A stretch of DNA of 64,000 bases from Escherichia coli (GCF_045037415.1 NZ_CP173438.1), one strand, 5' to 3'. Positions 50,066 to 63,807 are shown, counted from the first letter of the stretch. Notes: generated by a model from the sequence alone, not told the origin. Numbers and translations: made by a program.

Positions 50066-51463
50066 CTAGTCCTTCACTTTCATCGTGAAACCACGCCAGT
50101 CCGGTAGTGAAAGCGCGCCCGTTGCCACTACCCCATCATGATCCAGCATGCAGACACGACCAGGGTTCATACTGACAACCTCACGGATATACGCCTGCTC
50201 CACACCACAGATCATAAACGCCAACAGTGCCTTATTCCGCGCATATTGATGATGGTGAGTCTTTTCACGCTGATACACCTCACTATTAAGATCCAGTATT
50301 AATCCGACTTCATTAGCGTACCTGTGATAGTTACGCGGTGATGAACAACTCTTGCGGTGTGCGCCATGCACACGTTCCAGCAATGACTCAAGCGCAGATT
50401 TCAATGGACTGATATAACGGTTCCACCAACGCAAAATCTTTAGCGCCTTTTTTTTGCTGTTACCGCACCATCCATACACTTTTGCCCCAAGGCCATCATT
50501 AACACCAATAGTCACACGCCCAATTCTGTAGGTGGTGGTATGGACCATCTGTTTGCACTGTTTACGGGTCAGCCCGGTATGTTCCATCATGGTTTTATAT
50601 ATCGATGACTTCACACGATAATCGACGTCATACTGTCTGAACAGATGGTTCAGACAGGCCAGATTGCACGCTTCGATGTCATAGTTGAGTAACCCGGTCC
50701 GAAATTTAGCTTTGAACTCATTGGGCAGATTCTGGAAAGCTTGATCATAATACCGCCCTCCAAACGTCAGACGATAATGATGGTCGTAAGTGACATATTG
50801 TCCCTCAATCCTGCCATTGTAGAGATGGTTAAGGCTGCGTATTCCTGCGCGGTAATAGTGATCCGGCTCACGGCTACGCAATTCCTTCACAAACTGTATA
50901 CTCATGCGCCCCCGCCCAACTTTGGCCAAGAAGTCCTTTTCCGTTTGTTTTAGGGCCGTCTGGCGTTTCTCTACATCTATCGCATGCCCAGGAGCTTTCC
51001 CGTTCCCCTGAAGCAGAGCTCTAAAACTAACAGACTCACCAGTATCCAAGTCAACCAGATTTAACTTACCCCTGGCAGACTCATCACACACAGGCAGCAG
51101 GGGGTTGAACCGCCATGCACTGGCTCTACGCTTTTCCGGGTCTTTGCTCGCTTTTCCTGCACGAAATTCAATATCCGAAAGTGTCGGCAGGAAATCAGTT
51201 AGCGTGGACATAAAGCACTCCCCCTGGTAACTAATTTCACACTGTCCCAGGAGACTGGCATAGCTGCTACGGATATCCCGGACAGTGCATATAGTCCAGC
51301 CATCATCGTCTGTTTCCAGCCATATGTGAGCCAGGAACCACCGTACTGTCTGCCGCCGGGTAACAGCCCATTGCGTATCCCCCACGACATAATCCGTTAT
51401 TTCAGTAATACGGTCATAAACCCACTTAGGGATCTTCACTGGATAATCCTTTTCAGTACTCAC
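50066..51463 (-). CDS. Stand-alone family-A (Pol I-like) polymerase-domain protein with a novel N-terminal region
   Basis: 465 aa with a GTG start after GAGGGGA. Motifs read directly are NGRIEGQY...FGGRYYDQAFQNLP (cf. TGRxHTSY...TGRLSSxxPNLQNIP) and NYDIEACNL (motif A, DYSQIELR). Also present are RKQCKQMVHTTTYRIG (motif B, R-x3-K-x7-Y-x2-G) and MLDHDGVV (motif C, HDE). Confidence 0.65.
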   Translation of the reverse strand: MSTEKDYPVKIPKWVYDRITEITDYVVGDTQWAVTRRQTVRWFLAHIWLETDDDGWTICTVRDIRSSYASLLGQCEISYQGECFMSTLTDFLPTLSDIEFRAGKASKDPEKRRASAWRFNPLLPVCDESARGKLNLVDLDTGESVSFRALLQGNGKAPGHAIDVEKRQTALKQTEKDFLAKVGRGRMSIQFVKELRSREPDHYYRAGIRSLNHLYNGRIEGQYVTYDHHYRLTFGGRYYDQAFQNLPNEFKAKFRTGLLNYDIEACNLACLNHLFRQYDVDYRVKSSIYKTMMEHTGLTRKQCKQMVHTTTYRIGRVTIGVNDGLGAKVYGWCGNSKKKALKILRWWNRYISPLKSALESLLERVHGAHRKSCSSPRNYHRYANEVGLILDLNSEVYQREKTHHHQYARNKALLAFMICGVEQAYIREVVSMNPGRVCMLDHDGVVATGALSLPDWRGFTMKVKD

Positions 51464-51950
51464 GGTCCCCTCTCAGCATCCTCGTCTCACTACATTAACC
51501 AAACTCAACGCTGGGCAATTCGAAAGTCAAAACCCCAGTCGCGAGGATGGGCTCCGCCCATGATTTGCTCCACTCCGGTCGCAAATCTTTCCCCCTGTTC
51601 AGGCTGACGCCTTCCCTCACTCGCTGCGCTCGTTCGCCGTATCGTTTAATGACATGAGAAGGAGATGAAGCCTCCGTAGTGCTGCATGTCCCCAAGCTCT
51701 CCGTTGCGCTCAATGGCAATGGTGCTCGCTGACCGCTCCCCCCATTGTGTGTAGAATATTCACTGACAGAAACACAGAAAGCCCTCACAGATGCGCTAAC
51801 TCGTCAGTTGATGGTAAGGATCGGGTGTGCAGAGGCATCCGTGAGCCCCTGCAGAAAACAGACGGTTGCGTTAAAATCGAGACAGTTGGAATGTTAAAGT
51901 GCATCAGCGCCATCAAAATCACTGGCAAGCTTTGCAGTTTTACAACAACG

Positions 51951-51995
51951 AAAATGCAGTGGTTGCCGCTGTTATTCGTCGTTCCACTGCAATTT
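51951..51995. repeat. Inverted repeat AAAATGCAGTGG-N21-CCACTGCAATTT in the gap upstream of the polymerase gene
   Basis: 12-bp arms with one mismatch. The same 12-mer AAAATGCAGTGG recurs at 52930-52941. Confidence 0.8.
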
Positions 51996-52039
51996 AATCA
52001 ACAGCAAAAGTGCATTGCAGTTGCTGCATTACCGGTAAA

Positions 52040-52894
52040 TCAGTGCACTTTCCCTGGGGGTTGCCCAAACGAAAAAGAAACGACACCTGTTCCGAGTGAG
52101 TCCAGGGTAAGCAGACTTTTTAACAGTGTCCGGCCTTTCAGTAGCTCCATTCTTGACTTAACAAGAGCGTCTTTATCAGTCAGTGTGTAATCTGCTGTGT
52201 GCCAGACTGGATTCAGGGCGCATGAAATCAGTCTCGCGGGATCTTTATACCTGAGCACGATCACTGGTGTGTTAAGCGTCGATGCATCAATGAATGCCCC
52301 ACCACTTCGCGACATATGCGCTTTTAGCCCCTTAATCAACGTACTGTCATTGGGCAGGAACAAACACAACTGTGGAACCCAGAAAATACGCTCTTCTGGG
52401 CCATCAGGCATATGTCGCATCATACTGAAGGTGCCTGTGGCCGGACCGGCGTACCCCAGGCGGTTAAGTACCCGGCTTATCCTCTGCTTATAACGACCGA
52501 TTTGCGCCCTGAGCGCCCCAATGTTCTTCCATGGCGGCGGAGTTTGCGTATCCTTGTTGAAAAACAGGACCACTCCCACGTATTCTGCTGAATTCCCCGG
52601 CAAGACATGCAACATAGCCAGTTGCGCCAGAATGCGTTCCCGCTGGCAATGCGGGCATATAAGACTGTTGCATGGAGATCCGTTTCTGCACTGCCTTAGT
52701 TTTTGAGCAATGATGTTGTAGCAGCGATTGCTGCCTTTCAGTTTATTTAGTAAATGGTTAAGACGCTGCAGTTCATACTCACTTTCCTGCTGGGTAATAA
52801 TAGTGGGGAATGCTTTACTTAAAATCTCAAGCATTGACGGTGCGTGACGAATGTAATCCGGGTCAGATGTTCTGAAGTAATAAGAATCGTTCAT
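52040..52894 (-). CDS. Hypothetical protein with a CxxxxCPxC zinc-ribbon-like motif (possible replication initiator)
   Basis: 284 aa with AGGAA before the ATG. CNSLICPHCQRERILAQL resembles the Cys motif of some plasmid/phage Rep proteins, but I see no HUH motif. Confidence 0.55.
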   Translation of the reverse strand: MNDSYYFRTSDPDYIRHAPSMLEILSKAFPTIITQQESEYELQRLNHLLNKLKGSNRCYNIIAQKLRQCRNGSPCNSLICPHCQRERILAQLAMLHVLPGNSAEYVGVVLFFNKDTQTPPPWKNIGALRAQIGRYKQRISRVLNRLGYAGPATGTFSMMRHMPDGPEERIFWVPQLCLFLPNDSTLIKGLKAHMSRSGGAFIDASTLNTPVIVLRYKDPARLISCALNPVWHTADYTLTDKDALVKSRMELLKGRTLLKSLLTLDSLGTGVVSFSFGQPPGKVH

Positions 52895-52915
52895 TTAATA
52901 TTCCTAGCTGTATTG

Positions 52916-52950
52916 ATTACCCTGCCACCAAAATGCAGTGGCAGGGTAAT
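52916..52950. repeat. Perfect 13-bp stem hairpin ATTACCCTGCCAC-CAAAATGCA-GTGGCAGGGTAAT
   Basis: Read directly. It lies in the 87-bp spacer between the 155-aa and 284-aa genes, and its loop and right arm contain AAAATGCAGTGG. Confidence 0.9.
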
Positions 52951-52981
52951 ATGTCAGTTTTTCACCATACAGAAATGGCTA

Positions 52982-53449
52982 TTACCCGAATGACCTCGCC
53001 TGAGCATCTTCATGCCGCTCAACTAACTTATTGTAATCCCAATGATAAGAGGAATTTTTGTCGTTTGTTTCTAAAAAATCTAAAAATAACTCAGGCAACT
53101 GATATAAAGCGTATTCCCCGGTTACATCCACCCCCTGATAATGTAATTGCTGAGCGGTAGAACAATATGCACAGGCCCTGCTCCCGCAGGGAATGTATTT
53201 ACAACGCTCAAGGATAAGCGCCAGTTTAGCGTAGTTGCTCCACATGTCATCGGCCCCGCCGCAATCCTGTATGAGAATATTGGACACTGTATATGCAGAT
53301 GCGTAGTTAAGCTTACGTATCCGTAAACGCTGCTCCTTTAACACTGCTGATATCGTTTCTTGTGATAAACCAACCTGTTTCCCCATAGTTTCGAACCAAG
53401 GAACCAGCGTTTTTTTCGCAGAACTGGTTTTCGATTTTATCTCTTTCAT
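52982..53449 (-). CDS. Hypothetical Cys-rich protein
   Basis: ATG at 53449 (MKEIKSKTSSAKK...) lies 1 nt after the alpA stop and is preceded by GGAGA, giving 155 aa. Contains CKYIPCGSRACAYC. Confidence 0.55.
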   Translation of the reverse strand: MKEIKSKTSSAKKTLVPWFETMGKQVGLSQETISAVLKEQRLRIRKLNYASAYTVSNILIQDCGGADDMWSNYAKLALILERCKYIPCGSRACAYCSTAQQLHYQGVDVTGEYALYQLPELFLDFLETNDKNSSYHWDYNKLVERHEDAQARSFG

Positions 53450-53450
53450 T

Positions 53451-53648
53451 TCATTCTCCCGCCTGCATACGGCTGTTAACCCAGTTATTGATATCACTCT
53501 CCAGCCAGCCTACCGCCCGGCCATTGTCGCCCGTTAGCCTCTTTGACAAAGGAAAGAATCCTTTCGAGATGAGTCGGTACAACGTCGCTGACGAGTTCCC
53601 CGTCAGATGAAGTACCTCTTTTTTACGCAAAATACGGTTGGTGTTCAT
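53451..53648 (-). CDS. alpA: AlpA-family phage/island transcriptional regulator (excisionase-like HTH)
   Basis: 65-aa ORF MNTNRILRKKEVLHLTGNSSATLYRLISKGFFPLSKRLTGDNGRAVGWLESDINNWV, a typical AlpA signature. Confidence 0.85.
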   Translation of the reverse strand: MNTNRILRKKEVLHLTGNSSATLYRLISKGFFPLSKRLTGDNGRAVGWLESDINNWVNSRMQAGE

Positions 53649-53714
53649 GCTTGTGCTCCTTTGAGCTGTTTCAGGAGCGGGTTATTTACAACCACCAAAA
53701 AACGCAAGGATTCA

Positions 53715-53735
53715 CTCAACGATGCCTTCGTTGAG
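53715..53735. promoter_or_regulatory. Palindrome CTCAACGA-TGCC-(T)TCGTTGAG in the divergent promoter region
   Basis: An 8-bp inverted repeat between alpA (-) and the 204-aa gene (+). It is a candidate operator. Confidence 0.4.
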
Positions 53736-53870
53736 CACGTTAAGGGCATCTTTAATGTGGATGTCATTCGAGATCATCTATTTCTGTCTCCAGAACGGTC
53801 ATATAAAGAAGCAATTTTCACTGAGGCTCAATGGTGATATTTTGTACAAAACACTGTCATGGAGGTGACT

Positions 53871-54485
53871 ATGATTGGTAACCAAAGCAACAAGGCTGAC
53901 GCCAGATGCCACCGGGAACGGAAAAGCAGTAACGAGGTCTTTGAATTTCTGGAGAAGAAGCTTTATCTGGGACGGGATACCCGGCAAAAACTGGCACTGA
54001 TTGCCCGGAAACTGACGGGAGCGGGTTTTAGCCCGGATAAATTCGCTGCGGAGAAAGCGGCAGATGTGCTGAGTGCCTGCGTGAACCACATGTTTAATGA
54101 CCTGCTCAATGAGGGAGAGCCAAACGGGATTTATAGGCCGGAGGAACACCCCATGATAGTCCCGGCCAGGTCCCCTAAGGCACTGGAAATCTATACTGTT
54201 TACCAGCTTGTAAAAGGTCGTTTTGACAAGCTTCATACGGGGGAGTCAGATCGTGAGAAATATGCTTCGGTAGCAGAAAAACTTAATGAGTATGGAATAT
54301 GGAAACCCCGGTTAAAACGACTCTCTGACGGTAAAGAATGGGCGCGTGAGGATGTTGCGTGGATGCTTCAGCCTGAAAATATCAATGCACAAATTAACAT
54401 CCAGAATCAAAAGTACGCGCGGTTGAGTGCTGAAGATGAAACTGAAACCGAGTCTGGCAACGCCTCAACTGCTAAAAACATCTGA
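53871..54485 (+). CDS. Hypothetical protein
   Basis: The ORF track starts at 53859. ATG 53871 is preceded by GGAGG, giving 204 aa. I recognise no motif. The 3' end overlaps the convergent recombinase gene by 14 nt. Confidence 0.55.
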   Translation: MIGNQSNKADARCHRERKSSNEVFEFLEKKLYLGRDTRQKLALIARKLTGAGFSPDKFAAEKAADVLSACVNHMFNDLLNEGEPNGIYRPEEHPMIVPARSPKALEIYTVYQLVKGRFDKLHTGESDREKYASVAEKLNEYGIWKPRLKRLSDGKEWAREDVAWMLQPENINAQINIQNQKYARLSAEDETETESGNASTAKNI

Positions 54486-55401
54486 TGCGCTTGCTGGCAC
54501 TGATCTTCATAGTATCACCACGACAGTCATAGCGCGTCGTCGTGGATATGTCGCTGTGGCCTGCCAACTGGCGGACGGTATTGATATCCACGCCCTGCTC
54601 CAGCAAACGGGTGATGAAGGTGCGCCGCATATCATGCGGGGTAAAACGTGCTATACCTGCCGTTTGCTGTAACTCAGCCAGGATACCCGTTAACCCGGTC
54701 GTAGTCAGCGGTTGGCTTGCGACCTTACCACTGCGCTGAATTCGCCTAAACAACGCACTGTCAGCCTCGTCTGCGCCAACTTTCAGCCACGCACGAATAG
54801 CCTTGTCCACCGCATCCGCCACGTGAATTTCACGGTATTTACGCCCCTTCCCTTGCCTCACCGTCAGGATGCCGTTGTCATAGTCCCGGCGCTCAAGTTT
54901 AACCAGTTCCCCGGCCCGCAGGCCCGTTCCGCAAAGCATCAGCACAATGGCGACATCGCGACAGCGCCGTACAGATTGCGGATGCTGTTTTGCAGCCTGA
55001 ATCAGTACCCGGATTTCCTGCCTGCCCAGCGCCCTTCCCTTGCGCTGGACATCGCCGCTCACGCGCTTAACTGACCGGATACGTGCCAGCGTTTCGGCAT
55101 CCATGTAATTGAGGTTAAAGGCCGTCTGCGCTACGCCCCGGAGTGCTGACAGCGCCATGTTGACCGATGACACGGCGTAACCGTCATCCAGCAGTGCCGC
55201 GCGCACTTTGGCAACGGCGGCGTAGTTAAGTTGTTCCCACGGATAGTCTGCTGCATCCGCACCGTGTTTAAGTATGCTGGCGCTGCGGTTTAACAGGCTG
55301 GTGATACCTCGCCGTCCCGAGGGGGCCAGACCGACAATATACGCATCGAACACGGTGGTTTGCACCACCGGCACGACCTGACGCAACGCTGTCCTGCTCA
55401 T
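54472..55401 (-). CDS. Tyrosine recombinase (XerC/D-like phage integrase family)
   Basis: Catalytic contexts are TGLRAGE (R), GKGRKYR (K), HDMRRTF (HxxR), GHSDISTT (H) and TRYD (Y). I prefer ATG 55401 to the TTG at 55416. Confidence 0.85.
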   Translation of the reverse strand: MSRTALRQVVPVVQTTVFDAYIVGLAPSGRRGITSLLNRSASILKHGADAADYPWEQLNYAAVAKVRAALLDDGYAVSSVNMALSALRGVAQTAFNLNYMDAETLARIRSVKRVSGDVQRKGRALGRQEIRVLIQAAKQHPQSVRRCRDVAIVLMLCGTGLRAGELVKLERRDYDNGILTVRQGKGRKYREIHVADAVDKAIRAWLKVGADEADSALFRRIQRSGKVASQPLTTTGLTGILAELQQTAGIARFTPHDMRRTFITRLLEQGVDINTVRQLAGHSDISTTTRYDCRGDTMKISASKRIRCF

Positions 55402-55447
55402 GCGCGTAACCCGCAATAACGTACATTAAACCAAGTAACTTTCAGCA

Positions 55448-55900
55448 TCACACCAGTCCTCGCTCAGCCATCGACACCGTTTCAGTTCCTGCCACGATAA
55501 AGTGATCAAGTAACCGCACATCCAGTATTTCCAGCAGCTCCTGAAGCTTTTTGGTCAACTGGATGTCACACCGGCTGGGTTCAGGCTCGCCGCTGGGGTG
55601 ATTATGGACAAGGATGACGGCGGCGGCGTTATGTTTCAGCACACGCTTAATAACTTCACGGGGGTGAACGCTGACCGAGTTTAGCGTACCCCTGAACAGG
55701 ATTTCGCGGTGCAGCAGCTGATTATGATTATCGAGTAGGATGATGCCAAACTCTTCATGTTCAAGCGGTGCCAGCTCAACCATCACGCACCGTCGAACAT
55801 CATCAGGGGAACAGAGTTGAACCCCACGCTGGTAGTACCGGCTAATAATGTCACGCGCCTGGTCAAGGATACGGGTTTCACGCTGGGTAAACATGGTCAT
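55448..55900 (-). CDS. RadC-like JAB/JAMM domain protein (YeeS/YfjY/YkfG family)
   Basis: ATG 55900 lies 1 nt after the upstream stop. The JAMM motif is LVHNHPSGEPEPSRCD. Confidence 0.85.
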   Translation of the reverse strand: MTMFTQRETRILDQARDIISRYYQRGVQLCSPDDVRRCVMVELAPLEHEEFGIILLDNHNQLLHREILFRGTLNSVSVHPREVIKRVLKHNAAAVILVHNHPSGEPEPSRCDIQLTKKLQELLEILDVRLLDHFIVAGTETVSMAERGLV

Positions 55901-55901
55901 G

Positions 55902-56441
55902 TCAGAACTCCCGTTCAATGAAGTAAATGGCGTCTGGAAACAGCTGGCGGCGGGTTACGCCAGTACGCAGGGAGAAAGCTTTACGGGGCATGGTGGTTCG
56001 CCCGTTGCTGTCGAAGAAGCAGAGCATTTCTTCGTCCATTTTGACCAGAAGGGACCAGTGAAACTGGTCGCTGAGCATAATCAGGCGAGAGTGGTCAGTG
56101 ACGTCAAGAAACCGCTGCATTTCCCTGAACAGCCGCCCGTCTGTTAACCCCCGCTTCCCTGCAAAGGGTCTGGTGATTTCAACCGGGAACTGGCGGCGGT
56201 AATGCCCTTTCTGCAACACCTGAGCTATTAACCAGTCTAAGCGGTCTTCTTCAATTCCTTCAGTCAGCCATTCATGCAAAGGCCAGCGCTGCTGATAAGT
56301 CTGAATAAGCCAGTTCATTAACGGGCGTCGTTTCACCCTGCCGTCATACAGCCAGCTCAGCATGTTAACCACGCAATAAGCACCGCAAAGACAGTCCAGT
56401 TCGCCCTGTTGAGACGCACGTATCCCTCTGTCAGTCGTCAC
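55902..56441 (-). CDS. Predicted papain-fold cysteine peptidase-like protein
   Basis: 179 aa with a GTG start after GGGGA. QQGELDCLCGAYC has the Gln-x5-Cys spacing typical of papain-like oxyanion/nucleophile pairs. DQFHWSLLV...FFDSNG supplies candidate His and Asp/Asn residues. Confidence 0.5.
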   Translation of the reverse strand: MTTDRGIRASQQGELDCLCGAYCVVNMLSWLYDGRVKRRPLMNWLIQTYQQRWPLHEWLTEGIEEDRLDWLIAQVLQKGHYRRQFPVEITRPFAGKRGLTDGRLFREMQRFLDVTDHSRLIMLSDQFHWSLLVKMDEEMLCFFDSNGRTTMPRKAFSLRTGVTRRQLFPDAIYFIEREF

Positions 56442-56482
56442 AGATAATTCCCCATAAATTAGTGATGGTTAGTACAGGGGGA

Positions 56483-56905
56483 TTAGCTTTCCCAGAGAAC
56501 GGTAATGGTGTAGATGTTCATGCCGTGATACTGAATAAAGTTGGATTGCCAGAGTTCAAACAGCTCCCTTCCGGCGTTAACAGGCAGGTCACCAACATAA
56601 GCAAGAAAGACATATTGCTGACTCCAGCTGATATCAATTTCCTTTTCAAGTTCGGGGTATACCGTCCCCATATAACTGAAGTCGGTAATGTAATCAAAAT
56701 ACCATTCATCATTGCGTGAAATAATCCGTATTTCGACAGGATGGTAACCACCCTTTTCAGCGCTGTAACTCAGGTCTTTAAATAACAGACTGACGGCTGT
56801 AATTTTGGCTTTATGCGGCGGTGGATTTCCCGCTTCATTTAATATGATATTTATTAATTCCTGATCGACGGGCATAGCTAGCCCTTCCTGATGGACAATA
56901 TTCAT
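56483..56905 (-). CDS. Hypothetical 140-aa protein (possibly DUF2787-like; family recalled with low certainty)
   Basis: AGGAAA precedes the ATG. It is the first gene of the minus-strand operon 56905->54472. Confidence 0.5.
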   Translation of the reverse strand: MNIVHQEGLAMPVDQELINIILNEAGNPPPHKAKITAVSLLFKDLSYSAEKGGYHPVEIRIISRNDEWYFDYITDFSYMGTVYPELEKEIDISWSQQYVFLAYVGDLPVNAGRELFELWQSNFIQYHGMNIYTITVLWES

Positions 56906-57162
56906 CAGTGATTTTCCTGTTCAATATATTCTGATAAGACGTTATGTCTGCACCAGCACAGGTGGGGTTTAATCACCTAATAAATGGTAAGTGCATGACA
57001 ACGTACTGACTGGGTAAAATATAGTTCACCAGCAATATTATTATATCAAAAATATACTTTTTATGCAAATAGTAACAAAGAGAAACTAATATGTGGTTCA
57101 GCAATGAAATAACTGGCAATAGGTTTTTATTCATTATTAAGTGATGGCATACTTTCCATTCT

Positions 57163-57214
57163 GCCATGTCAGACAGGTCAGGATTCCGGGGTGGTTCCTT
57201 CTGTCTGGCATGGC
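57163..57214. repeat. 14-bp-stem inverted repeat just 3' of the c-like repressor gene
   Basis: GCCATGTCAGACAG-N24-CTGTCTGGCATGGC pairs with one G-U. No U-tract occurs on either strand. Confidence 0.7.
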
Positions 57215-57229
57215 GGAAAACTGACGCTA

Positions 57230-57718
57230 TCACACCTTCCCGTTCAGCTTTTCAAAGAGGCGCTTACGCTCATCTTCGGGCAGCTTCATGATTTGTACCG
57301 CCAGTTCAGAAACATTGGGCACCTGAGACATCAGATCGTCCTTTACCAGCCTGAGGGCCTGCTCCATCAGTTGCGCCCGCGAAGCTGGCGACATATTGCG
57401 ATACAGCTGCACCCAGAGGCTTAGCTGGCGATCACTGTCGTTGAGAGTAAACGCTTCGCCCTTAGCCCTGTTTCTCTCATCATCAAGCGACATTGTGGCT
57501 GCGCTAATATGGTAAACCACACCTTTCCCGGCAGTCCTTTTACGACGTATTTCCGGGTGCAGGGATGCCAGCTTTTCCAAGCGCATCCTGGCGCCACGCG
57601 CAGTGCCCGGCATCCCCTCAATATGAGTGAATTCCTCTGCTGTCAGCCAGTCTTTAGCCTCTTCAACAGAAGCTTCAGGATGAGTAGGTATAGCCGAAAC
57701 TGTTCTCTTACTGCTCAT
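57230..57718 (-). CDS. Mu Repc(c)-like DNA-binding repressor
   Basis: ATG 57718 gives 162 aa. EEFTHIEGMPGTARGARMRLEKL...RKRTAGKGVVYH parallels the Mu c repressor N-terminal winged-helix region (...MPGSVAGVHYRA...RKKEGVKGGKAVEY) as I recall it. Confidence 0.6.
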   Translation of the reverse strand: MSSKRTVSAIPTHPEASVEEAKDWLTAEEFTHIEGMPGTARGARMRLEKLASLHPEIRRKRTAGKGVVYHISAATMSLDDERNRAKGEAFTLNDSDRQLSLWVQLYRNMSPASRAQLMEQALRLVKDDLMSQVPNVSELAVQIMKLPEDERKRLFEKLNGKV

Positions 57719-57764
57719 ATAAATTTCACCAGATATCAATGCGTTAATATGAAAACCAATAAAT

Positions 57765-57792
57765 AGATACCAAAAGAACTTGAAAGGTATCT
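57765..57792. promoter_or_regulatory. Inverted repeat AGATACC-N14-GGTATCT in the c/ner divergent intergenic region
   Basis: Read directly. The region also contains three TTAATA(T/C) copies. It is a candidate operator. Confidence 0.4.
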
Positions 57793-57839
57793 TTTATTCG
57801 CATTTAATATCCATGTACTGATTCCATGGAGTTAATACT

Positions 57840-58109
57840 GTGCGTAACTCAACAGCATCGCAGAAAAAGCAAATCAAAGGAAGTTCAGGGAACTGGCATC
57901 GTGCCGATATTGTGGCAGCACTTCACAAGCGAGGGTTAACGCTGGCGTTACTGTCACGCAGTCACGGCCTTGCGCCACGGACATTAAATAACGCCTTAGA
58001 GCGTCATTATCCCAGAGCTGAGCGCATTATTGCCGGGGCTCTGGATACGACACCGGAAACATTATGGCCGGAAAGGTATGCCCTTAAAAATGGACCTAAT
58101 AGCAGGTAA
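57840..58109 (+). CDS. Ner/Nlp(SfsB)-family DNA-binding protein
   Basis: 89 aa. WHRADIVAALHKRGLTLALLSRSHGLAPRTLNNALERHYPRAERIIAGALDTTPETLWPERY is the Ner-like HTH signature. Confidence 0.85.
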   Translation: MRNSTASQKKQIKGSSGNWHRADIVAALHKRGLTLALLSRSHGLAPRTLNNALERHYPRAERIIAGALDTTPETLWPERYALKNGPNSR

Positions 58110-58120
58110 AGGATGCAACC

Positions 58121-58648
58121 ATGGCAACCACCATCACTGAAATAACGGAATGCTTTGAGTATTTTTTCAGTTCTCTTTATCGCAGGGAGTTCGTCAAAAC
58201 CCTGCGTCTGAACGAATGTAGCGAGCGGGAATTACTGCCTCTGGTACGTTGCTATTTGCTGGGTTGGTTTGCAGATAACGTCTCACCGGAAGTAAAAAGC
58301 AAACTGCCAGGAACTGTATCCGGGCACGGTTACATTGATTTTGTCATTGACGATGTGGCCGTTGAGTTTGCAGTACGTAAACCAACTGCGGCACGTTCCA
58401 ATGTCTCTGCGACCGTCAACAGTACAGAAGTAAAGAAATTGATGAAACATGACGGCAAAGCCTTGCTTGTGCTGTTTGATTTCTCTGACACACCCTATTC
58501 AGAAGAACAGATTGAATCCTTCCGCAACTGGCCCTCTCTTGGTCGAGGGAATCATCGCAAGTCTGCATTCAACGTCGTTTATTTCTTTGTGGAAAAACGC
58601 AGACCGCTGGCACTGGGGAAAATCACCAAAAACATCCGTATCACTTAA
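58121..58648 (+). CDS. Hypothetical cytoplasmic protein, possible PD-(D/E)xK-like fold
   Basis: 175 aa with AAGGA before the ATG. GYIDFVIDDVAVEFAVRK...STEVKK could supply D...E.K, but the spacing is atypical. Confidence 0.5.
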   Translation: MATTITEITECFEYFFSSLYRREFVKTLRLNECSERELLPLVRCYLLGWFADNVSPEVKSKLPGTVSGHGYIDFVIDDVAVEFAVRKPTAARSNVSATVNSTEVKKLMKHDGKALLVLFDFSDTPYSEEQIESFRNWPSLGRGNHRKSAFNVVYFFVEKRRPLALGKITKNIRIT

Positions 58649-58662
58649 CAGGGAATTAATTA

Positions 58663-59022
58663 ATGAACAGAAAACTGTTGGCCTTATTCATGGCAGCCAT
58701 AACGCTACCAGTCGCAGCAGCGCAGTACGTAAAACCCGGAGCGGTTCTAACCCTGCATCCGGGACAGAATAACGCTGAATTCAACATTAATGCCTCAACG
58801 GGGGATGGTTCGGGCGTATGCAATATGGAGGGGACAGCACAGCAAATAGCTGCCGGAGAAAGTCAGAAGCGTCGCTGGGTCTGGAATGACAATGCCAGCG
58901 AGTGTGTTGCAGTAATTAGTGAACTGACAAACGGTAAGGCCAGCATTATGACACGTGGTTGCGAGGGATACTGCGGGGCTTCTGCGGCAGGCGCAATGGA
59001 TGGTCTATTTAATAAGAAATAA
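58663..59022 (+). CDS. Hypothetical secreted protein (signal peptide, four Cys)
   Basis: 119 aa. MNRKLLALFMAAITLPVAAAQ is a signal peptide ending in an AxA-like cleavage site. Confidence 0.55.
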   Translation: MNRKLLALFMAAITLPVAAAQYVKPGAVLTLHPGQNNAEFNINASTGDGSGVCNMEGTAQQIAAGESQKRRWVWNDNASECVAVISELTNGKASIMTRGCEGYCGASAAGAMDGLFNKK

Positions 59023-59052
59023 AAGTATCATTAATTTACGAAGGAACTACAG

Positions 59053-59388
59053 ATGAAAAGAGCAATACTTCTGGTATTAATTGCTGCTGGTTTGCTGGCT
59101 GGCTGCGGCGAGAAAACGCCAAAATGTAGTAGTGATGATGCAAAAAATCTGGTCGGGGATATTGCAAGAAAGACAATCGAGAAAGGGATGAAACTGGATA
59201 AGGATGTGCGTATTTCTGTAGAAAATGTCAGAACAATTAGCCATGAATCAGATCTGGATGTTTATCAGTGCGCTGCTGATTTAACGTTTACAAAACCAGA
59301 TTTGCAAAATTCTCTACCAATCACCTACCGGATTCAGAAAACTGATGAGGGTAAAGGTCCGTTTTATATAAACGTAACAGGTTTATAA
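59053..59388 (+). CDS. Hypothetical lipoprotein
   Basis: 111 aa with the lipobox LLAGC after a hydrophobic leader, and AAGGA before the ATG. Confidence 0.6.
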   Translation: MKRAILLVLIAAGLLAGCGEKTPKCSSDDAKNLVGDIARKTIEKGMKLDKDVRISVENVRTISHESDLDVYQCAADLTFTKPDLQNSLPITYRIQKTDEGKGPFYINVTGL

Positions 59389-59454
59389 TCACTGAATAAC
59401 ATCCGGGTTCCTTTTGGGTGAAATAATTCATGTTTTATTCCAAAAGGAAACCCT

Positions 59455-59700
59455 ATGAAAAAGATCATCATATTTACCATTATAGCTATTATCACATTTA
59501 GTTGGCTCGTTACACACAATACAACTGAGTCCGAAAAAATCCCTCCTGCTAATACTCCCTTTATTATTAAGTCTAACGTACCTGGCATGTGCAAGGTCAG
59601 CGCCATCACAACCTCTACAGATACCAAACAGAATATACCTGTCGTAGCGTGCAAAATCAGCATTACGACCGCAATCACTTCCAGTACTACCAGTTACTGA
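59455..59700 (+). CDS. Hypothetical small signal-anchored protein (Thr/Ser-rich)
   Basis: 81 aa. MKKIIIFTIIAIITFSWLV is an N-terminal TM segment. AAAGGAAA precedes the ATG. Confidence 0.5.
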   Translation: MKKIIIFTIIAIITFSWLVTHNTTESEKIPPANTPFIIKSNVPGMCKVSAITTSTDTKQNIPVVACKISITTAITSSTTSY

Positions 59701-60267
59701 TCACTGTGTTTACTTTACCGACAGACTGGGATACAAAAACGTCAAACACCTTCTCAATCAGTCTTATACCGTAAGCAATGCCGGGTGTGTCGGGCTCTGA
59801 GGGTTGATTAATTCCACAGGCATATGAAGACTAAATCCTACCATCCCCATACCTGCTGAGCCGCTCCGTTGAACATCTTTATCGCCTTGCTGTGGGTGCC
59901 AATCACGGCTATCCCCGCCCGTCTTGTAGGTTGGGGCTCACCAAATACGATGCCACTGGGAAGCTCTTTCAGTGTCACGTAATGCCATTTATAGCCCAGA
60001 TATGACCTGCTACTGAGCTAACTACATTGATTTGCCTAAATCCTGGGGCCTCTAAAGCGTCAGCGCCGCGCAGCAGTATAGGCAAGCCACTTTTAACGGG
60101 TTTTATCCGGCTCCCTGAGGCTGCTTTCAGAAAAGGCGTGTAATCGGATAACTACAGCAACCTAGGGAAGTATGTGCTTGTAGAATGAATGCAGTGGTAA
60201 TCAAGACTACCGCTTTTACAAACCCCACCAATCGTATAACTGCGATTTGATGGCTACCCATCCTAAG

Positions 60268-62154
60268 TTACTTCATTAAAATAGCACTATTTTTTGAGGG
60301 CAGCGGGATAAGGGCTCTGCGCTCTCCATCCATTGCATGTTCACCCGCAAACCATTCGTAATGAACTTTATTCATGATTGATACCGGCGGTTCTTTATTC
60401 TCTATAACTATGATTTGTAAGGTATCAGGCAATTGGGTCAGTGAATGCCAGAAGCCTTCCTCAATACCAGCCGATATGGGTTCATCGAAGCCCGATACCG
60501 TAGCAGCGGCTTTCTTCTTATAACTTGTCAGCGGTGAATCAATCACGACTAGCCCAGGATGCGGGTATCCTTTTTTAATACAATATTTTAGTAATCCAAT
60601 GATGAAAGCTGAATAAAGAATGGCACGAACACCTTTACCGTGAGACTGCCGAGGTTGTCCATCAACAATGATGTCATACTCTTTTTCATTAAATGAAACG
60701 TCAGGCTCGGCACCCCATTTCCAGTCTTTTAAAACAGTTTCAATTTCTCTACAAAGTTCGGCCAGCGTACGGGTAGATAATCCCTCCCATTCGAGCCGTG
60801 GTTGACTGCTCTTTTCCAGCAGTATTTCTATATCCTTTTGATGTTTTAGTAACTCAAACCATCTCTGTCGATCATTCAACTCAGAGTCTCTTTCAGCTCG
60901 CTGCTCAATAGCTAAATCTAGGCTTTCTTTGGAAAGTGTAAGAAGAGGCTCAAAAGTATATTTGATCTGGTTCTTCATTCCATCCAAGCTTTCTTTTGAC
61001 TTATATCTGTCTATATTCAGAGCTTCTTTTCTTCGGTCAAGATCACTCATCGCTTTTTGCAGGCCTGCAAGGTATCCATGAATTTTTGCAGCTTCAGCTA
61101 AAGAAGAACGTCGGACTTCATTACTGTTCATTAATTTTTTAGCGTTCTCACTGTGTGGATGTAGTAAATTTTGTCCACAAAGGGAACAAGGAACTTCCTG
61201 AAGTGAAGTGAAATAGTGAGAACCTTCGGAAATAAAATCCAACCGCTTCAGGTCGGAATGGTAACGTTCTTCTAATAGGCTATATCTCGATTGAATTTCA
61301 GATACTCCCATTAACTGAGATTCTATTTTTAACGTTAACGCTGTCTCCATTTTTATTCCCTCGAGCAAGTCAGAAATAGCGGCTGCAGCCCTCTCAACTT
61401 CATCAATTGCTTGTGCAATCAATTGATCTGATAAATCATCTGCTGAGCTCGTTAATGGAAACTTGGGCGAACAAATTGAGAAACGTTCATCAAGTGGTCG
61501 AATCAAATCCTGGATGAATTCAAGCTTCGCCATCAACCTCGCTTTTACAATTTCAGGCTTTTCCTCTACGGTAACACCACCATCATCGTGCCCGGTAAGG
61601 ATGTATGAAAACATGCGTTTTCGAGCAGTGTCGTCATAACCGGAACGTCCCGTTACTGGCGAGTATTCGTCGATAATGGATACTTCATCTACCAAAAATA
61701 TAGGAGCGAGCGTTCGAATCGAGAAACGTTGCGTTTCGCCACGAGCATTCTTGCGAAGCTTCGCCTCTTTGATCCCCGCAAAAGGGAAAAGTATGGACGT
61801 CACATCTGGCCCCTTACTCGTTCCTTTACGCACAGGAGCAATTATTTTACCTTCTCCATGGATGTCTTGAATAGCGACATCATGTGCCTCTAATTTCCCC
61901 CCCTCAAGACCGCGCTTGAGCGTTAACACCCCCCCTTCATCATTTTCGAATTCAACATAAAGATGGGTGTAATCGGTGGCCTCTTTAAGCTTTTTTTTGA
62001 GTTTTTCGGCACCAAGAATGTAGTCAAGACAACTCACAAGGTAACTTTTCCCAGTATCAGATTCCCCTGCTAGAATATTCGCACCCTTATAGAAATCAAC
62101 ATAAGCGTCTTGAACGCTGTTTCCGCGCAATAGTATTTTTCTTATACGAAGCAT
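60268..62154 (-). CDS. Rad50/SMC-like ABC ATPase (LmuB / ABC-3C ATPase, DUF3732-like)
   Basis: ATG 62154 lies 1 nt after the upstream stop (MLRIRKILLRGN...). It has Walker A GESDTGKSY and a long central helical region with CSLCGQ (CxxC, zinc-hook-like). The C-terminal motif is GLVVIDSPLTSY (Walker B/D-loop). Confidence 0.75.
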   Translation of the reverse strand: MLRIRKILLRGNSVQDAYVDFYKGANILAGESDTGKSYLVSCLDYILGAEKLKKKLKEATDYTHLYVEFENDEGGVLTLKRGLEGGKLEAHDVAIQDIHGEGKIIAPVRKGTSKGPDVTSILFPFAGIKEAKLRKNARGETQRFSIRTLAPIFLVDEVSIIDEYSPVTGRSGYDDTARKRMFSYILTGHDDGGVTVEEKPEIVKARLMAKLEFIQDLIRPLDERFSICSPKFPLTSSADDLSDQLIAQAIDEVERAAAAISDLLEGIKMETALTLKIESQLMGVSEIQSRYSLLEERYHSDLKRLDFISEGSHYFTSLQEVPCSLCGQNLLHPHSENAKKLMNSNEVRRSSLAEAAKIHGYLAGLQKAMSDLDRRKEALNIDRYKSKESLDGMKNQIKYTFEPLLTLSKESLDLAIEQRAERDSELNDRQRWFELLKHQKDIEILLEKSSQPRLEWEGLSTRTLAELCREIETVLKDWKWGAEPDVSFNEKEYDIIVDGQPRQSHGKGVRAILYSAFIIGLLKYCIKKGYPHPGLVVIDSPLTSYKKKAAATVSGFDEPISAGIEEGFWHSLTQLPDTLQIIVIENKEPPVSIMNKVHYEWFAGEHAMDGERRALIPLPSKNSAILMK

Positions 62155-62155
62155 G

Positions 62156-62671
62156 TTATAAATCCAGTAGATCAATTGCGGTCAATCGGTCGAATTCAGA
62201 ACCCCATTGCCCCACATTCTGAGATATATATGAAGCAAGTTCTTCATCCGTATATTCATAGAATTGCTTTGTGACCCAAGAGGCACGTTCTGCGAGCTCT
62301 TTTGAATACTGTGACATCAAAAGCCGCACAAACCTTCCTGTTAAATTGGTAGCCTGATACAAAATACCTTCGGCAGCAAAGACAACCTTAATCAATTCTC
62401 TTGATAGCATTAAATGCAGCCCTGCCTGAATTGCGCTTCGCTTAACAAGAAGCTCTGCTCCCCGGTGAGGAACTGCTGGATGAAGGCTTTTAGGCCCCCT
62501 AGGTACGTCACTGGTATGCACAAGAAGATAGTCATACGAAACTATCCTTTGTAGGTCCATTGCTACATTGTCCGCTGCATCCAATATGAACAGAGCACGA
62601 AATCCATACTCCAGCGGAGTGTTAAAAGGTCTCTGCTCAAAGTTTCCTTCAAATACTTGCATTTCGCTCAT
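62156..62671 (-). CDS. Small helical middle component (LmuC / ABC-3C middle-component-like)
   Basis: ATG 62671 forms an ATGA overlap with the upstream stop, giving 171 aa with no enzymatic motif. Its position between effector and ATPase matches three-gene Lamassu. Confidence 0.6.
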   Translation of the reverse strand: MSEMQVFEGNFEQRPFNTPLEYGFRALFILDAADNVAMDLQRIVSYDYLLVHTSDVPRGPKSLHPAVPHRGAELLVKRSAIQAGLHLMLSRELIKVVFAAEGILYQATNLTGRFVRLLMSQYSKELAERASWVTKQFYEYTDEELASYISQNVGQWGSEFDRLTAIDLLDL

Positions 62672-63807
62672 GGATTGCACCAATTAATCAAGTTTGTATT
62701 GGCTAGTTGGTGGCATATACCTTCACGATCCTTATTCGTTACGTGAATGGCAAGTGGGTGCGCACCAAGTTGCAGGGTCTGAGCGGCCTTGACGGTATTT
62801 TTTAACCGAAGGAGTGGAGTCCCTGTCAGGTCAGAGGTGTAGTGATACAGACCATCATCAAACTCTACAAGTAAAGAATTAAAGAATTCTTGATTCGCCA
62901 TTTGGTCCCTAGCGAGTTCCTTTAGCCCTTCCGAGCAATAAAAAGTTATTCGGGACCGTTCAAAGAGTTTTACATGGCTGATACTTGATTGAAAATCAAC
63001 TAAATCTCGCACGTTGGTTTTGATATCAGCGCTGATAACTGAAAAGAGTTGTTCAATATATACAGTTTCAATGGGAGCCACAGATGATGGGGGCCTAGTT
63101 GGTGGATCCCGCTCAATTAATGGTGCGCCAAAGACCATAAGATGAAAAGAGGTTTTACTGTGTTCGGCAAGTATCTCAATAGGCTGTTTTGCATGAAAAA
63201 TACTAAAATCAAACTCTTTAATATATTTTTCAAGTTCAGGCGTCAGGTCAACACTATGTTTCGATGTAATTTGCTTTGAAAAAGTTGCCCACTCGGATAG
63301 CATTTTCTCTTTGAGTTTAGTTGGATCATCTAGGAGGTCTTGGAATGGCGATGTTACCCCTTTATGTGTAACAAAATGGTATTGTGTAGGTACTGTGTAG
63401 TCCTTGATGAAAGTATAATAGATAACTTTTGCAACTTCGATGCCTGCCTTAGGAAGGCCTAAATTCGCATCATAATGTTTGCATTGATATAAGTGCCATC
63501 TTCGAGGAACAGCATCAGATGGATCAAGCCATACAACAATATCTCTGCCTTTATCTCCTGCCCCGCCACGTTGTTGTACTTCGTTGACATATTGCTGACC
63601 AGCTAAGTATTCAGAGGCCCATTCGAGTGTAAACCTTTCAAATTCGGCGGCGCTAAACTGTGCCAGACGATCCAAGGGGGCTATTGGAAGCCCTACACCT
63701 AACCCAAGCAGCCGAGCGTTCGCACCCGGCCACGTTGTAGGAGCAGAAAGCGCGCCAAGCGTCGAACTTGAATTTTGTTTCATCTTCTCTACCACCACAA
63801 CCTCCAT
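62668..63807 (-). CDS. Mrr-type PD-(D/E)xK nuclease fused to a long C-terminal domain (LmuA-like effector)
   Basis: 379 aa, with an alternative ATG at 63783. FERFTLEWASEYL...GGAGDKGRDIVVW...WHLYQCKHY matches the Mrr_cat pattern (D-G-x-D ... Q-x-K). Confidence 0.7.
   Translation of the reverse strand: MEVVVVEKMKQNSSSTLGALSAPTTWPGANARLLGLGVGLPIAPLDRLAQFSAAEFERFTLEWASEYLAGQQYVNEVQQRGGAGDKGRDIVVWLDPSDAVPRRWHLYQCKHYDANLGLPKAGIEVAKVIYYTFIKDYTVPTQYHFVTHKGVTSPFQDLLDDPTKLKEKMLSEWATFSKQITSKHSVDLTPELEKYIKEFDFSIFHAKQPIEILAEHSKTSFHLMVFGAPLIERDPPTRPPSSVAPIETVYIEQLFSVISADIKTNVRDLVDFQSSISHVKLFERSRITFYCSEGLKELARDQMANQEFFNSLLVEFDDGLYHYTSDLTGTPLLRLKNTVKAAQTLQLGAHPLAIHVTNKDREGICHQLANTNLINWCNP

Follow-up and report, generated by a model that had tools for sequence, protein, structure and literature searches.

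A predicted papain-fold cysteine peptidase paired with a mobile-element-type RadC protein in an Escherichia coli genomic island

RadC proteins are common on plasmids, integrative and conjugative elements (ICEs), prophages and islands, and what they do has been a matter of dispute since 'RadC, a misleading name?', as relayed by papers citing that work (PMC5512222, PMC12826799). One RadC-type protein, LfgB (YfjY) of prophage CP4-57, has been reported to degrade the helix-turn-helix (HTH) antitoxin MqsA and casein in vitro (Fernandez-Garcia et al., PMC10846083). On broad-host-range plasmids, RadC is often found beside a small protein, DUF3085, with which a complex is predicted (PMC12826799). The present analysis concerns a RadC gene in a 64,000-nucleotide (nt) stretch of Escherichia coli DNA (NZ_CP173438.1), referred to as the window, where it directly follows the gene for a 179-amino-acid (aa) protein, here termed Pep, with the predicted features of a papain-fold cysteine peptidase. 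Within the literature and database searches made, three aspects of this locus appear to be new: a large unannotated clan CA family, its systematic mis-annotation and its conserved, sometimes fused, pairing with RadC of the mobile genetic element (MGE) type. Each component taken singly (the fold class, RadC, DUF2787, the tyrosine recombinase) is of a known kind.

Several described systems share features with this locus. The gene order of CP4-57 in strain K-12 is lfgA(yfjX)-lfgB(yfjY, RadC-type)-ypjJ-yfjZ-ypjF, the antirestriction-type lfgA lying upstream of the RadC gene and ypjJ and a toxin-antitoxin pair downstream. ICEBs1 carries immR, immA and int, encoding a regulator, a protease and an integrase, respectively; ImmA is an M78-type metallopeptidase. 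Peptidase C39 (ComA, PCAT1 and LahT150) is a clan CA family with the catalytic order Gln, Cys, His, Asp, in which the catalytic His is followed by an aromatic residue. Such a residue is enriched 477-fold in deubiquitinases (DUBs) and ubiquitin-like (UbL) proteases and excludes P2 side chains, C39 being the only other Gly-Gly-cleaving protease family described with such a gatekeeper (Hermanns et al., PMC7391069). DUF2787 is a core gene of gammaproteobacterial pipolins, in which piPolB occurs with IntSXT, DUF2787 and WYL (PMC11551731).

A first-pass annotation of the window had described four tightly spaced minus-strand genes with gaps of 41, 1 and 46 nt. Four open reading frames (ORFs) were confirmed at 56905-56483 (140 aa), 56441-55902 (179 aa), 55900-55448 (150 aa) and 55401-54472 (309 aa), and ORF calling reproduced the three gaps exactly. 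The products are as follows.

55902..56441, minus strand: Pep, 179-aa cytoplasmic papain-fold (clan CA) cysteine peptidase (predicted), GTG start
55448..55900, minus strand: short MGE-type RadC, 150 aa, JAB/JAMM domain without the N-terminal helix-hairpin-helix region (Pfam PF04002, E 6.2e-46)
56483..56905, minus strand: DUF2787 protein, 140 aa (Pfam PF10980, E 6.8e-34)
54472..55401, minus strand: tyrosine recombinase, 309 aa from ATG, without arm-binding domain (Pfam PF00589, E 1.4e-31)

The RadC protein resembles LfgB/YfjY, YeeS and YkfG of the CP4-type cryptic prophages in its short architecture, its intact JAMM motif and its location in an integrated mobile element, and is 44% identical to LfgB over 142 residues. 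The neighbors differ, with a cysteine peptidase gene upstream and a recombinase gene downstream, and the contrast with CP4-type islands that had been drawn earlier holds against the K-12 order. The likeness to immR-immA-int is one of geometry without homology: regulator, protease(s) and integrase are co-directional and a Cro/Ner-like gene is divergent, but the enzymes are of the papain-fold and JAB types, a separate promoter-like site intervenes between the regulator gene and the cluster, and Pfam detected no Peptidase_M78 domain in the four-gene module. As in pipolins, DUF2787 is encoded beside a tyrosine recombinase in an integrative island with defense cargo (PMC11551731). The pipolin integrase differs in having an arm-binding domain, and the pipolin DUF2787 gene has ∼74% DNA identity over 144 nt to the one in the window. 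Pfam scanning covered the 18 ORFs at 50066-63807; no PolB or WYL hit was obtained among them, the search for piPolB being confined to this part of the window. The proposal of a pipolin remnant was rejected, as an E. coli pipolin examined at tRNA-Leu shares DUF2787 only and its 177-aa neighbor is unrelated to Pep (hhalign probability 0.1%). VSP-II of Vibrio cholerae, which has DUF2787 (VC0508) and a protein annotated for DNA repair and taken as RadC (VC0510), was also set aside; a Pep homologue there could not be shown.

Pep and its family

Searches of Pfam, NCBIfam, PHROGs and PADLOC gave no match for Pep. Among 1.84 billion cluster representatives searched with a profile, 730 proteins matched at an E value of ≤0.001 and 121 at ≤1e-10; nearly all members are stand-alone proteins of 165-195 aa, and the family comprises ∼730 clusters at 50% identity without a Pfam or NCBIfam model. 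Seven residues (Q12, G13, C19, G20, N26, G62 and H128) were invariant in an 81-member alignment (20-54% identity), and a further eight (L15, D16, Y22, L41, P92, W129, D144 and S145) were at least 90% conserved. Intact Pep loci, 88 in number, were fetched from genomes and metagenomes, and in every one of these Q12, G13, D16, C19, G20, Y22, H128, W129, D144 and S145 were identical. The first-pass annotation had read the string QQGELDC as a papain-type motif. This string is present, but its cysteine, Cys17, is not the predicted nucleophile: position 17 is Cys in 48 of the loci, Ser in 33 and another residue in 7. Because Q12 and C19 are invariant while Cys17 varies, the true motif is taken to be Q-G-x-L-D-x-L-C-G, with C19 as the nucleophile predicted by conservation. 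The H-W and D-S-N strings proposed as further catalytic candidates were supported, H128-W129 and D144-S145 being invariant in the intact loci.

RefSeq/PGAP annotates Pep as a protein of 153 aa starting from Met27 (WP_000954131.1), with loss of the invariant Q12 and the catalytic C19. The GTG start is favored because the N-terminus is conserved and a ribosome-binding site is present, a Shine-Dalgarno-like GGGGA being located 7 nt ahead of the GTG at 56441. Many Pep-family database entries are 153 aa long owing to the same mis-start; the mis-started RefSeq entries represent a fixable annotation error. The 90%-identity cluster of Pep also lists 150-aa RadC proteins, presumably an artifact of read-through or fused sequences bridging the two.

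An AlphaFold2 model built from the 81-sequence alignment had a mean predicted local distance difference test score (pLDDT) of 96.6 and a predicted template-modeling score (pTM) of 0.92, and superseded a first model from 13 sequences (pLDDT of 79), which had a disordered N-terminus and only weak Foldseek hits. In the later model a helix starts at residue 16, just ahead of C19, and H128 and D144 lie beside strands 129-135 and 139-142, in keeping with the papain-fold arrangement of a nucleophile helix packed on a His- and Asn/Asp-bearing β-sheet. The order of the catalytic residues along the chain (Q12, C19, H128, D144) is the Gln, Cys, His, Asn/Asp order of clan CA. By this model, Pep is a papain-fold cysteine hydrolase, small and cytoplasmic, in which the predicted set of Gln12, Cys19, His128 and Asp144 is intact, and the earlier suggestion of a papain-like fold with Cys and His conserved in homologues stood. 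Structural neighbors and their scores were as follows; Josephin-type and viral tegument DUBs were also among them.

Alr0975 (phytochelatin-synthase-like): 11.6
22oc, 'P210 CD lyase': 11.6
PCAT1 C39 domain: 11.3
ComA C39 domain: 11.2
Lpg2622 and PeiR endoisopeptidase: 11.1
LahT150 C39 domain: 11.0
UfSP1/2: 10.5-10.7
ZUFSP family: 10.1-10.5
ATG4A: 10.3

The family profile gave only weak matches to the PDB, namely, SENP8 (E 0.018) and RickCE (E 0.66). The Pep motifs His-Trp, Asp-Ser and Gln...Asp-Cys-Gly...Asn resemble those of SENP8 (clan CE, Ulp1/SENP8), but the SENP8 alignment has the His-Asp and Gln-Cys blocks in swapped order and its E value, the best obtained, is nonsignificant. The order His, Asp, (Gln), Cys of clan CE is not found in Pep; as the order is Cys, His, Asp, the family is placed in clan CA and not clan CE.

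Pep shares with peptidase C39 both the catalytic order and the aromatic residue after His. It differs in giving no hit to Pfam PF03412, which matches 5 of the 81 family members with a best E value of 0.01. A few members had weak Pfam C39, C39-like or Josephin hits, amid scattered single hits to unrelated families, and one UniRef name in the family is 'Peptidase C39 domain-containing'. A second difference is the presence of two extra residues between the conserved Asp and Cys (D-x-L-C-G), which appear as a gap against the D-C-G of SENP8; C39 also has D-C-G. Pep is, in addition, a stand-alone protein without a signal-peptide-like N-terminus whose partner is a RadC gene, and no ABC transporter or double-glycine leader-peptide gene was found near it among the 18 ORFs. 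Judged by sequence, the Pep family is not a member of Pfam C39. The residue following the catalytic His of Pep is Trp (W129) in every intact locus and, with this gatekeeper, Pep would be expected to prefer small, Gly-Gly-type residues before the scissile bond. A phage origin of Pep was considered and rejected: only 4 relatives were present in 2.9 million IMG/VR contigs, BFVD gave no significant structural match (best E 2.6e-3), and there was no PHROG hit.

Conservation of the Pep-RadC pair

The RadC-like JAMM assignment of the 150-aa protein was confirmed by scores of 155.7 bits against a cut-off of 22.1 for PF04002 and 145.2 against 133.85 for TIGR00608, by a match to PDB entry 2qlc (E 4.4e-21) and by an intact H-x-H-x7-S-x2-D motif (HNHPSGEPEPSRCD), which was also found in 34 of 34 RadC genes of related loci. 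The protein scored 161 bits against a threshold of 180 for the full-length RadC/YicR equivalog NF000642 and aligned only to positions 77-211 of the 212 in that model, because the N-terminal region is missing. The longest ORF begins at a TTG at 55918, the 150 aa being counted from the ATG, which lies 1 nt past the TGA of Pep and is preceded by GGGAG. The Pep and RadC genes are translationally coupled through this stop-start junction, and no terminator-like site was found on the minus strand inside the four-gene cluster.

The 140-aa protein had been described as unknown but belongs to a named family with solved structures, DUF2787 (117.3 bits against a cut-off of 27 for PF10980). It is acidic, with an isoelectric point of 4.54, and its PGAP start is Met11 (56875). 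The solved relatives are from V. cholerae islands: VC0508 (2w56, E 1.9e-25) and VC1805 (2v1l, E 4.1e-23), the fold of the latter having been described as Mam33/p32-like (PMC2881812). Residues 51-56, K-G-G-Y-H-P, were invariant in 33 homologues, including the pipolin copy, and are a candidate Pep site because they contain the only Gly-Gly in any module protein. The designation of the last gene product as a XerC/D-like tyrosine recombinase was upheld by the PF00589 match and by readable catalytic motifs (LRAGE, HDMRRTF and GHSDISTTTRY), though the protein is neither XerC nor XerD, with scores of 128 for TIGR02224 and 96.9 bits for TIGR02225 against cut-offs of 335 and 330.

Species-representative genomes were scanned for Pep, yielding 80 loci in which ORFs were called and then searched with profiles seeded from the window proteins. 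The distribution of partners was as follows.

Enterobacterales, Aeromonas and Orbales (31 loci): RadC directly downstream on the same strand, 26; DUF2787 in cluster, 28; recombinase downstream, 20; all four genes, 20
Pasteurellaceae (18 loci): RadC, 0; DUF2787, 0; recombinase, 0; all four genes, 0
Other phyla, mostly Anaerolineales (31 loci): RadC, 0; DUF2787, 1; recombinase, 1; all four genes, 0

The gene association is, as had been anticipated, conserved in other genomes, and the inclusion of the recombinase gene in the cluster was borne out by its frequency as a co-directional member. Orthologous recombinases of the related loci were 55-92% identical to that of the window. DUF2787 was upstream of Pep in most loci of the Enterobacterales group and downstream of RadC in six. 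The association was kept down to 33-41% Pep identity, with Pep diverging faster than its partners; in one locus (L033), identities were 38% for Pep, 52% for RadC, 52% for DUF2787 and 59% for the recombinase. Metagenomic relatives with 41% Pep identity were found in islands beside yicC with a P4-type integrase and CBASS (cyclic-oligonucleotide-based antiphage signaling system), Fic or M78-HTH cargo. These yicC-site islands have the order HTH_3, Pep, RadC (after a 12-nt gap) and, further on, AlpA and a protein of 449-463 aa, without DUF2787 or a XerC-like recombinase. DUF2787 and the recombinase are frequent but dispensable members of the co-directional cluster.

A natural in-frame fusion of the two enzymes was also detected.

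L094 2012-3028 (Logan SRR22387900 contig): Pep::RadC fusion P0126

This protein of 338 aa (RadC domain E 1.4e-42) was present in two independent assemblies, in a locus with the order DUF2787, fusion, PcfJ-like gene, XerC-like recombinase and type I restriction cargo. A 281-aa apparent Pep-RadC hybrid (P0028) was excluded from the evidence as a likely frameshifted assembly. The pair persists where the gene order has changed, where the recombinase has been lost and where integrase, regulator and cargo have been exchanged; with the fusion, this argues for selection on Pep-RadC as a pair.

In the other two groups of loci, Pep was found alone. In Pasteurellaceae, AlpA lies ∼550 nt downstream of Pep, and the single locus inspected (L043) has an HTH_3 gene immediately upstream. 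Loci of other phyla have Pep beside metallo-β-lactamase-fold and F420H2-reductase-like genes. Further contexts were an hsdM-hsdS-Pep-hsdR operon with overlapping stop and start codons in Phaeobacter gallaeciensis (CP021047; L090 5001-5564), an integrase/DUF3768/DUF927 element in Albimonas and a site beside a MNT/HepT pair.

The position of the module within its island was examined at the site occupied in the window, ychF-dhaR (seen in strain SK1144). Two genes downstream of the cluster are needed for this comparison.

53859..54485, plus strand: conserved 208-aa protein (p208; ORF call), convergent with the recombinase gene, whose 3′ end it overlaps by 14 nt
53451..53648, minus strand: AlpA-type HTH regulator/excisionase (Pfam PF05930, E 2.6e-12)

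A variant island at the same site retains int, the gene for a 465-aa protein, the AlpA-p208-recombinase-RadC-Pep-DUF2787 block (94% identity) and three small genes, while different large defense-like genes flank the AlpA-to-DUF2787 block on both sides. The module is thus part of the conserved island backbone between variable cargo and is not itself cargo. In 23 loci, some of them without the recombinase, a homologue of p208 separated AlpA from RadC or the recombinase. AlpA followed Pep at a distance of 0.5-4.6 kb in 54 of 89 sources, every Pasteurellaceae locus among them, and with a single exception the two genes shared a strand. The host elements are AlpA-type integrative genomic islands of Gammaproteobacteria, and the copy in the window carries defense cargo.

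Many complete E. coli chromosomes, several with O25b:H4 or ST131 labels, matched the segment at 54300-57100 with 100% identity. The module region was present in 595 of 5,426 complete E. coli genomes (506 at ≥99% identity and 89 at 90-95%); as ST131-labeled strains are included, a role of the module in island maintenance, mobility or counter-defense bears on a clinically important lineage.

Possible roles of the pair

We propose that Pep and RadC constitute a two-hydrolase unit acting on a protein or peptide-linked substrate to the benefit of the island, in establishment, counter-defense or state switching, with DUF2787 as an acidic accessory and the recombinase co-expressed. This general statement is given an even chance of being correct; its mechanistic forms are rated separately among the alternatives below. 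Pep and RadC would act together, probably as a complex. On establishment of the island or a switch of its state, they might remove or process a host or element protein, for example a defense factor or a DNA-binding regulator. DUF2787 could act as an acidic decoy or adaptor, and co-expression of the recombinase would allow proteolysis and recombination to coincide, in a layout that resembles immR-immA-int of ICEBs1 in geometry only. A regulator gene of the HTH type (Mu c-like or XRE) directly upstream of the cluster and co-directional with it fits a backbone role, and the reported degradation of MqsA by LfgB would provide a protease precedent for RadC (PMC10846083). A role of RadC on the side of the mobile element may also fit with the antirestriction neighbor in CP4-57 and the DUF3085 partner on plasmids (PMC12826799).

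A number of observations weigh against this proposal. The papain fold also hosts transpeptidase, acyltransferase and amidase chemistry, as in Alr0975, CtaG and PeiR among the top structural hits, so that peptidase is the likeliest, not a proven, activity of Pep. Contaminating proteases were not strictly excluded by the authors of the LfgB assay themselves (PMC10846083), and contextual analysis has favored a nucleic-acid-processing role for the RadC domains of mobile elements (PMC5512222). As Pep occurs alone in 18 Pasteurellaceae loci and, beside genes of housekeeping type, in 31 loci of other phyla, it can dispense with RadC, and its family extends beyond mobile elements. The relative inside the type I restriction operon of P. 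gallaeciensis looks host-defensive rather than element-serving. The counts for the Enterobacterales group are, moreover, not independent events, because the loci descend from one element lineage.

One alternative is an anti-repressor switch similar to that of ImmA, in which Pep, RadC or both cleave the upstream HTH repressor and derepress the island, after which the co-transcribed recombinase acts on DNA. The relevant features upstream of the cluster are as follows.

57040..57069, minus strand: best promoter-like site (consensus scan, 10/12 matches), TTTGCA, 18-nt spacer with TG, TATAAT
57230..57739, minus strand: 169-aa regulator-like protein of Mu-type repressor/transposase N-terminal families (phrog_310, E 1e-7; phrog_7148, E 1.1e-5)
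57840..58109, plus strand: 89-aa HTH_35 (Ner/Nlp-type) protein, divergent from the 169-aa regulator (Pfam PF13693, E 1.5e-26)

The 169-aa regulator gene is directly upstream of the cluster and co-directional, and homologues were detected in 23 of the 31 related genomes, 20 of them with this same placement. A co-directional upstream HTH gene recurs in three architectures (Mu c-like in these 20 of 31, XRE HTH_3 in the yicC-site islands and a Haemophilus locus). The order of repressor, protease(s) and integrase with a divergent Ner/Cro-like gene mirrors ICEBs1, and RadC-type LfgB is reported to degrade an HTH regulator (PMC10846083). The upstream regulators belong, however, to unrelated families, so that there is no single conserved substrate, and Pep of Anaerolineales and of the restriction operon has no HTH neighbor among the ORFs checked. 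CP4-type RadC genes have antirestriction and toxin-antitoxin genes, not a repressor gene, as neighbors, DUF2787 is left unexplained, and the promoter-like site and an 18-nt hairpin separate the regulator gene from the cluster. This switch is, in our judgment, unlikely.

The cluster had been likened in the first-pass annotation to the UbL or peptide-tag processing modules of conflict systems, and this comparison was not sustained. No UbL, E1 or E2 gene was detected among the 18 ORFs, and the composition of type II CBASS (Cap2/Cap3) and Bil-type systems is hence not found there. Known defense systems were rejected when a PADLOC scan of ten ORFs, the four module genes among them, gave no hit; the module is backbone rather than cargo, and RadC-type JAB domains have been argued to be unlikely to have a groove for the ubiquitin tail (PMC5512222). 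We infer that the module is not a host-protecting UbL system. The invariant Trp after the catalytic His keeps a weaker form of the idea alive, in which a Gly-Gly cysteine protease and a JAB isopeptidase form a pair of deconjugases for a UbL or tagged protein, either as a conflict system in its own right or as a counter to type II CBASS Cap2/Cap3 or Bil-type immunity. The gatekeeper is shared with DUBs, UbL proteases and C39; UbL isopeptidases have the JAB fold; UfSP1/2, ZUFSP, ATG4A and Josephin-type and viral tegument DUBs are structural neighbors of Pep; CBASS cargo occurs in related islands; and the weak profile matches to SENP8, with its permuted blocks, and RickCE point the same way. The fold does not discriminate, because C39 and phytochelatin-synthase-like enzymes score as high as UbL proteases, and neither the ∼5 kb on either side of the cluster nor the Pfam-annotated related loci contain a UbL, E1 or E2 gene, to which are added the PADLOC result and the predicted lack of a ubiquitin-tail groove. 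A deconjugase pair is, for these reasons, quite unlikely. Its more specific form is equally doubtful: Pep and RadC would be island-encoded Gly-Gly deconjugases that strip conjugates of host immunity (Cap2-primed CD-NTases [cGAS/DncV-like nucleotidyltransferases] or Bil-type UbL) or a GG-tagged protein, with DUF2787 as adaptor or substrate. If true, this would for the first time assign a biochemical role to the widespread RadC proteins of the MGE type, and would define a new class of anti-defense.

A function on the DNA side, in which Pep would be an amidase or transferase of papain fold without proteolytic activity, or would remove covalent protein-DNA adducts, and all members would act on island DNA, is considered very unlikely. 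It would agree with the published prediction of nucleic acid processing for mobile-element RadC domains (PMC5512222), with the co-directional recombinase in 20 of 31 genomes, with the PcfJ-like gene between the fusion and the recombinase in L094 and with the non-protease chemistries among the top papain-fold hits, but domain searches detected no DNA-binding domain in Pep or the short RadC, many Pep-RadC loci are without a recombinase, and the His-Trp gatekeeper points to peptide substrates. That there is no joint function, the genes being merely co-inherited in one island backbone, would suit the descent of the related loci from one element lineage and the presence of Pep alone in other clades, but it is highly improbable given the 1-nt stop-start junction, the fusion in two assemblies and the survival of the pair through DUF2787 reshuffling, recombinase loss and changes in integrase type, regulator type and cargo.

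The two-hydrolase proposal overturns nothing. A conserved partner that is translationally coupled to RadC, is at times fused to it and bears a clear catalytic signature provides an experimental handle on RadC and makes the question of its function on mobile elements directly testable.

Flanking genes and minor features of the island

Promoter-like sites of the cluster region were confined, in a consensus scan, to the AT-rich spacer of 324 nt that precedes the first gene; the best of these is a candidate only, because such sites were no more numerous than in shuffled sequence. A 12-nt inverted repeat (56972-56983 and 57134-57145; 11/12 complementary) brackets this site. A recombinase-controlled invertible promoter was rejected: the region was collinear and in one orientation in 510 E. 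coli genomes, and inversion was not seen (595 places in 593 records). The hairpin past the stop codon of the 169-aa regulator gene is an 18-nt inverted repeat (57159-57218, minus strand; 89% complementary, with a 24-nt loop and without a T-run) that could be a terminator or an operator. The divergent pair of the Mu c-like regulator (PHROG matches only) and the HTH_35 protein resembles the immunity switch of phage Mu, placed at the center of the island. The 208-aa protein matched the 'Recombinase' domain of serine recombinases weakly and below threshold (E 0.0056).

Other genes of the island within the window were as follows.

50066-51463, minus strand: backbone protein of 465 aa, downstream of AlpA
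52040-52894, minus strand: backbone protein of 284 aa, downstream of AlpA
52982-53497, minus strand: backbone protein of 171 aa, downstream of AlpA
60268-63807, minus strand: ABC-three-component (ABC-3C) system, consisting of a CTD6 and Mrr_cat protein, the middle component MC2 and an AAA-type ATPase

The three backbone proteins had no Pfam, NCBIfam, PHROG or PADLOC match. As its homologues follow AlpA in distant islands, the 465-aa protein may serve island replication or mobility.

The island of SK1144 begins with a tyrosine integrase gene adjoining ychF, followed by insertion sequence (IS) elements and DUF2339/DUF3999 genes, the genes studied here, the ABC-3C system, a retron Ec67-type gene and IS5. 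The retron Ec67-type reverse transcriptase gene comes after ABC-3C, just past the position matching the end of the window. The window was collinear with the SK1144 record except for a 2.26-kb insertion at 40547-42806, which lies close to the ychF-side integrase, where the island is rich in IS elements.

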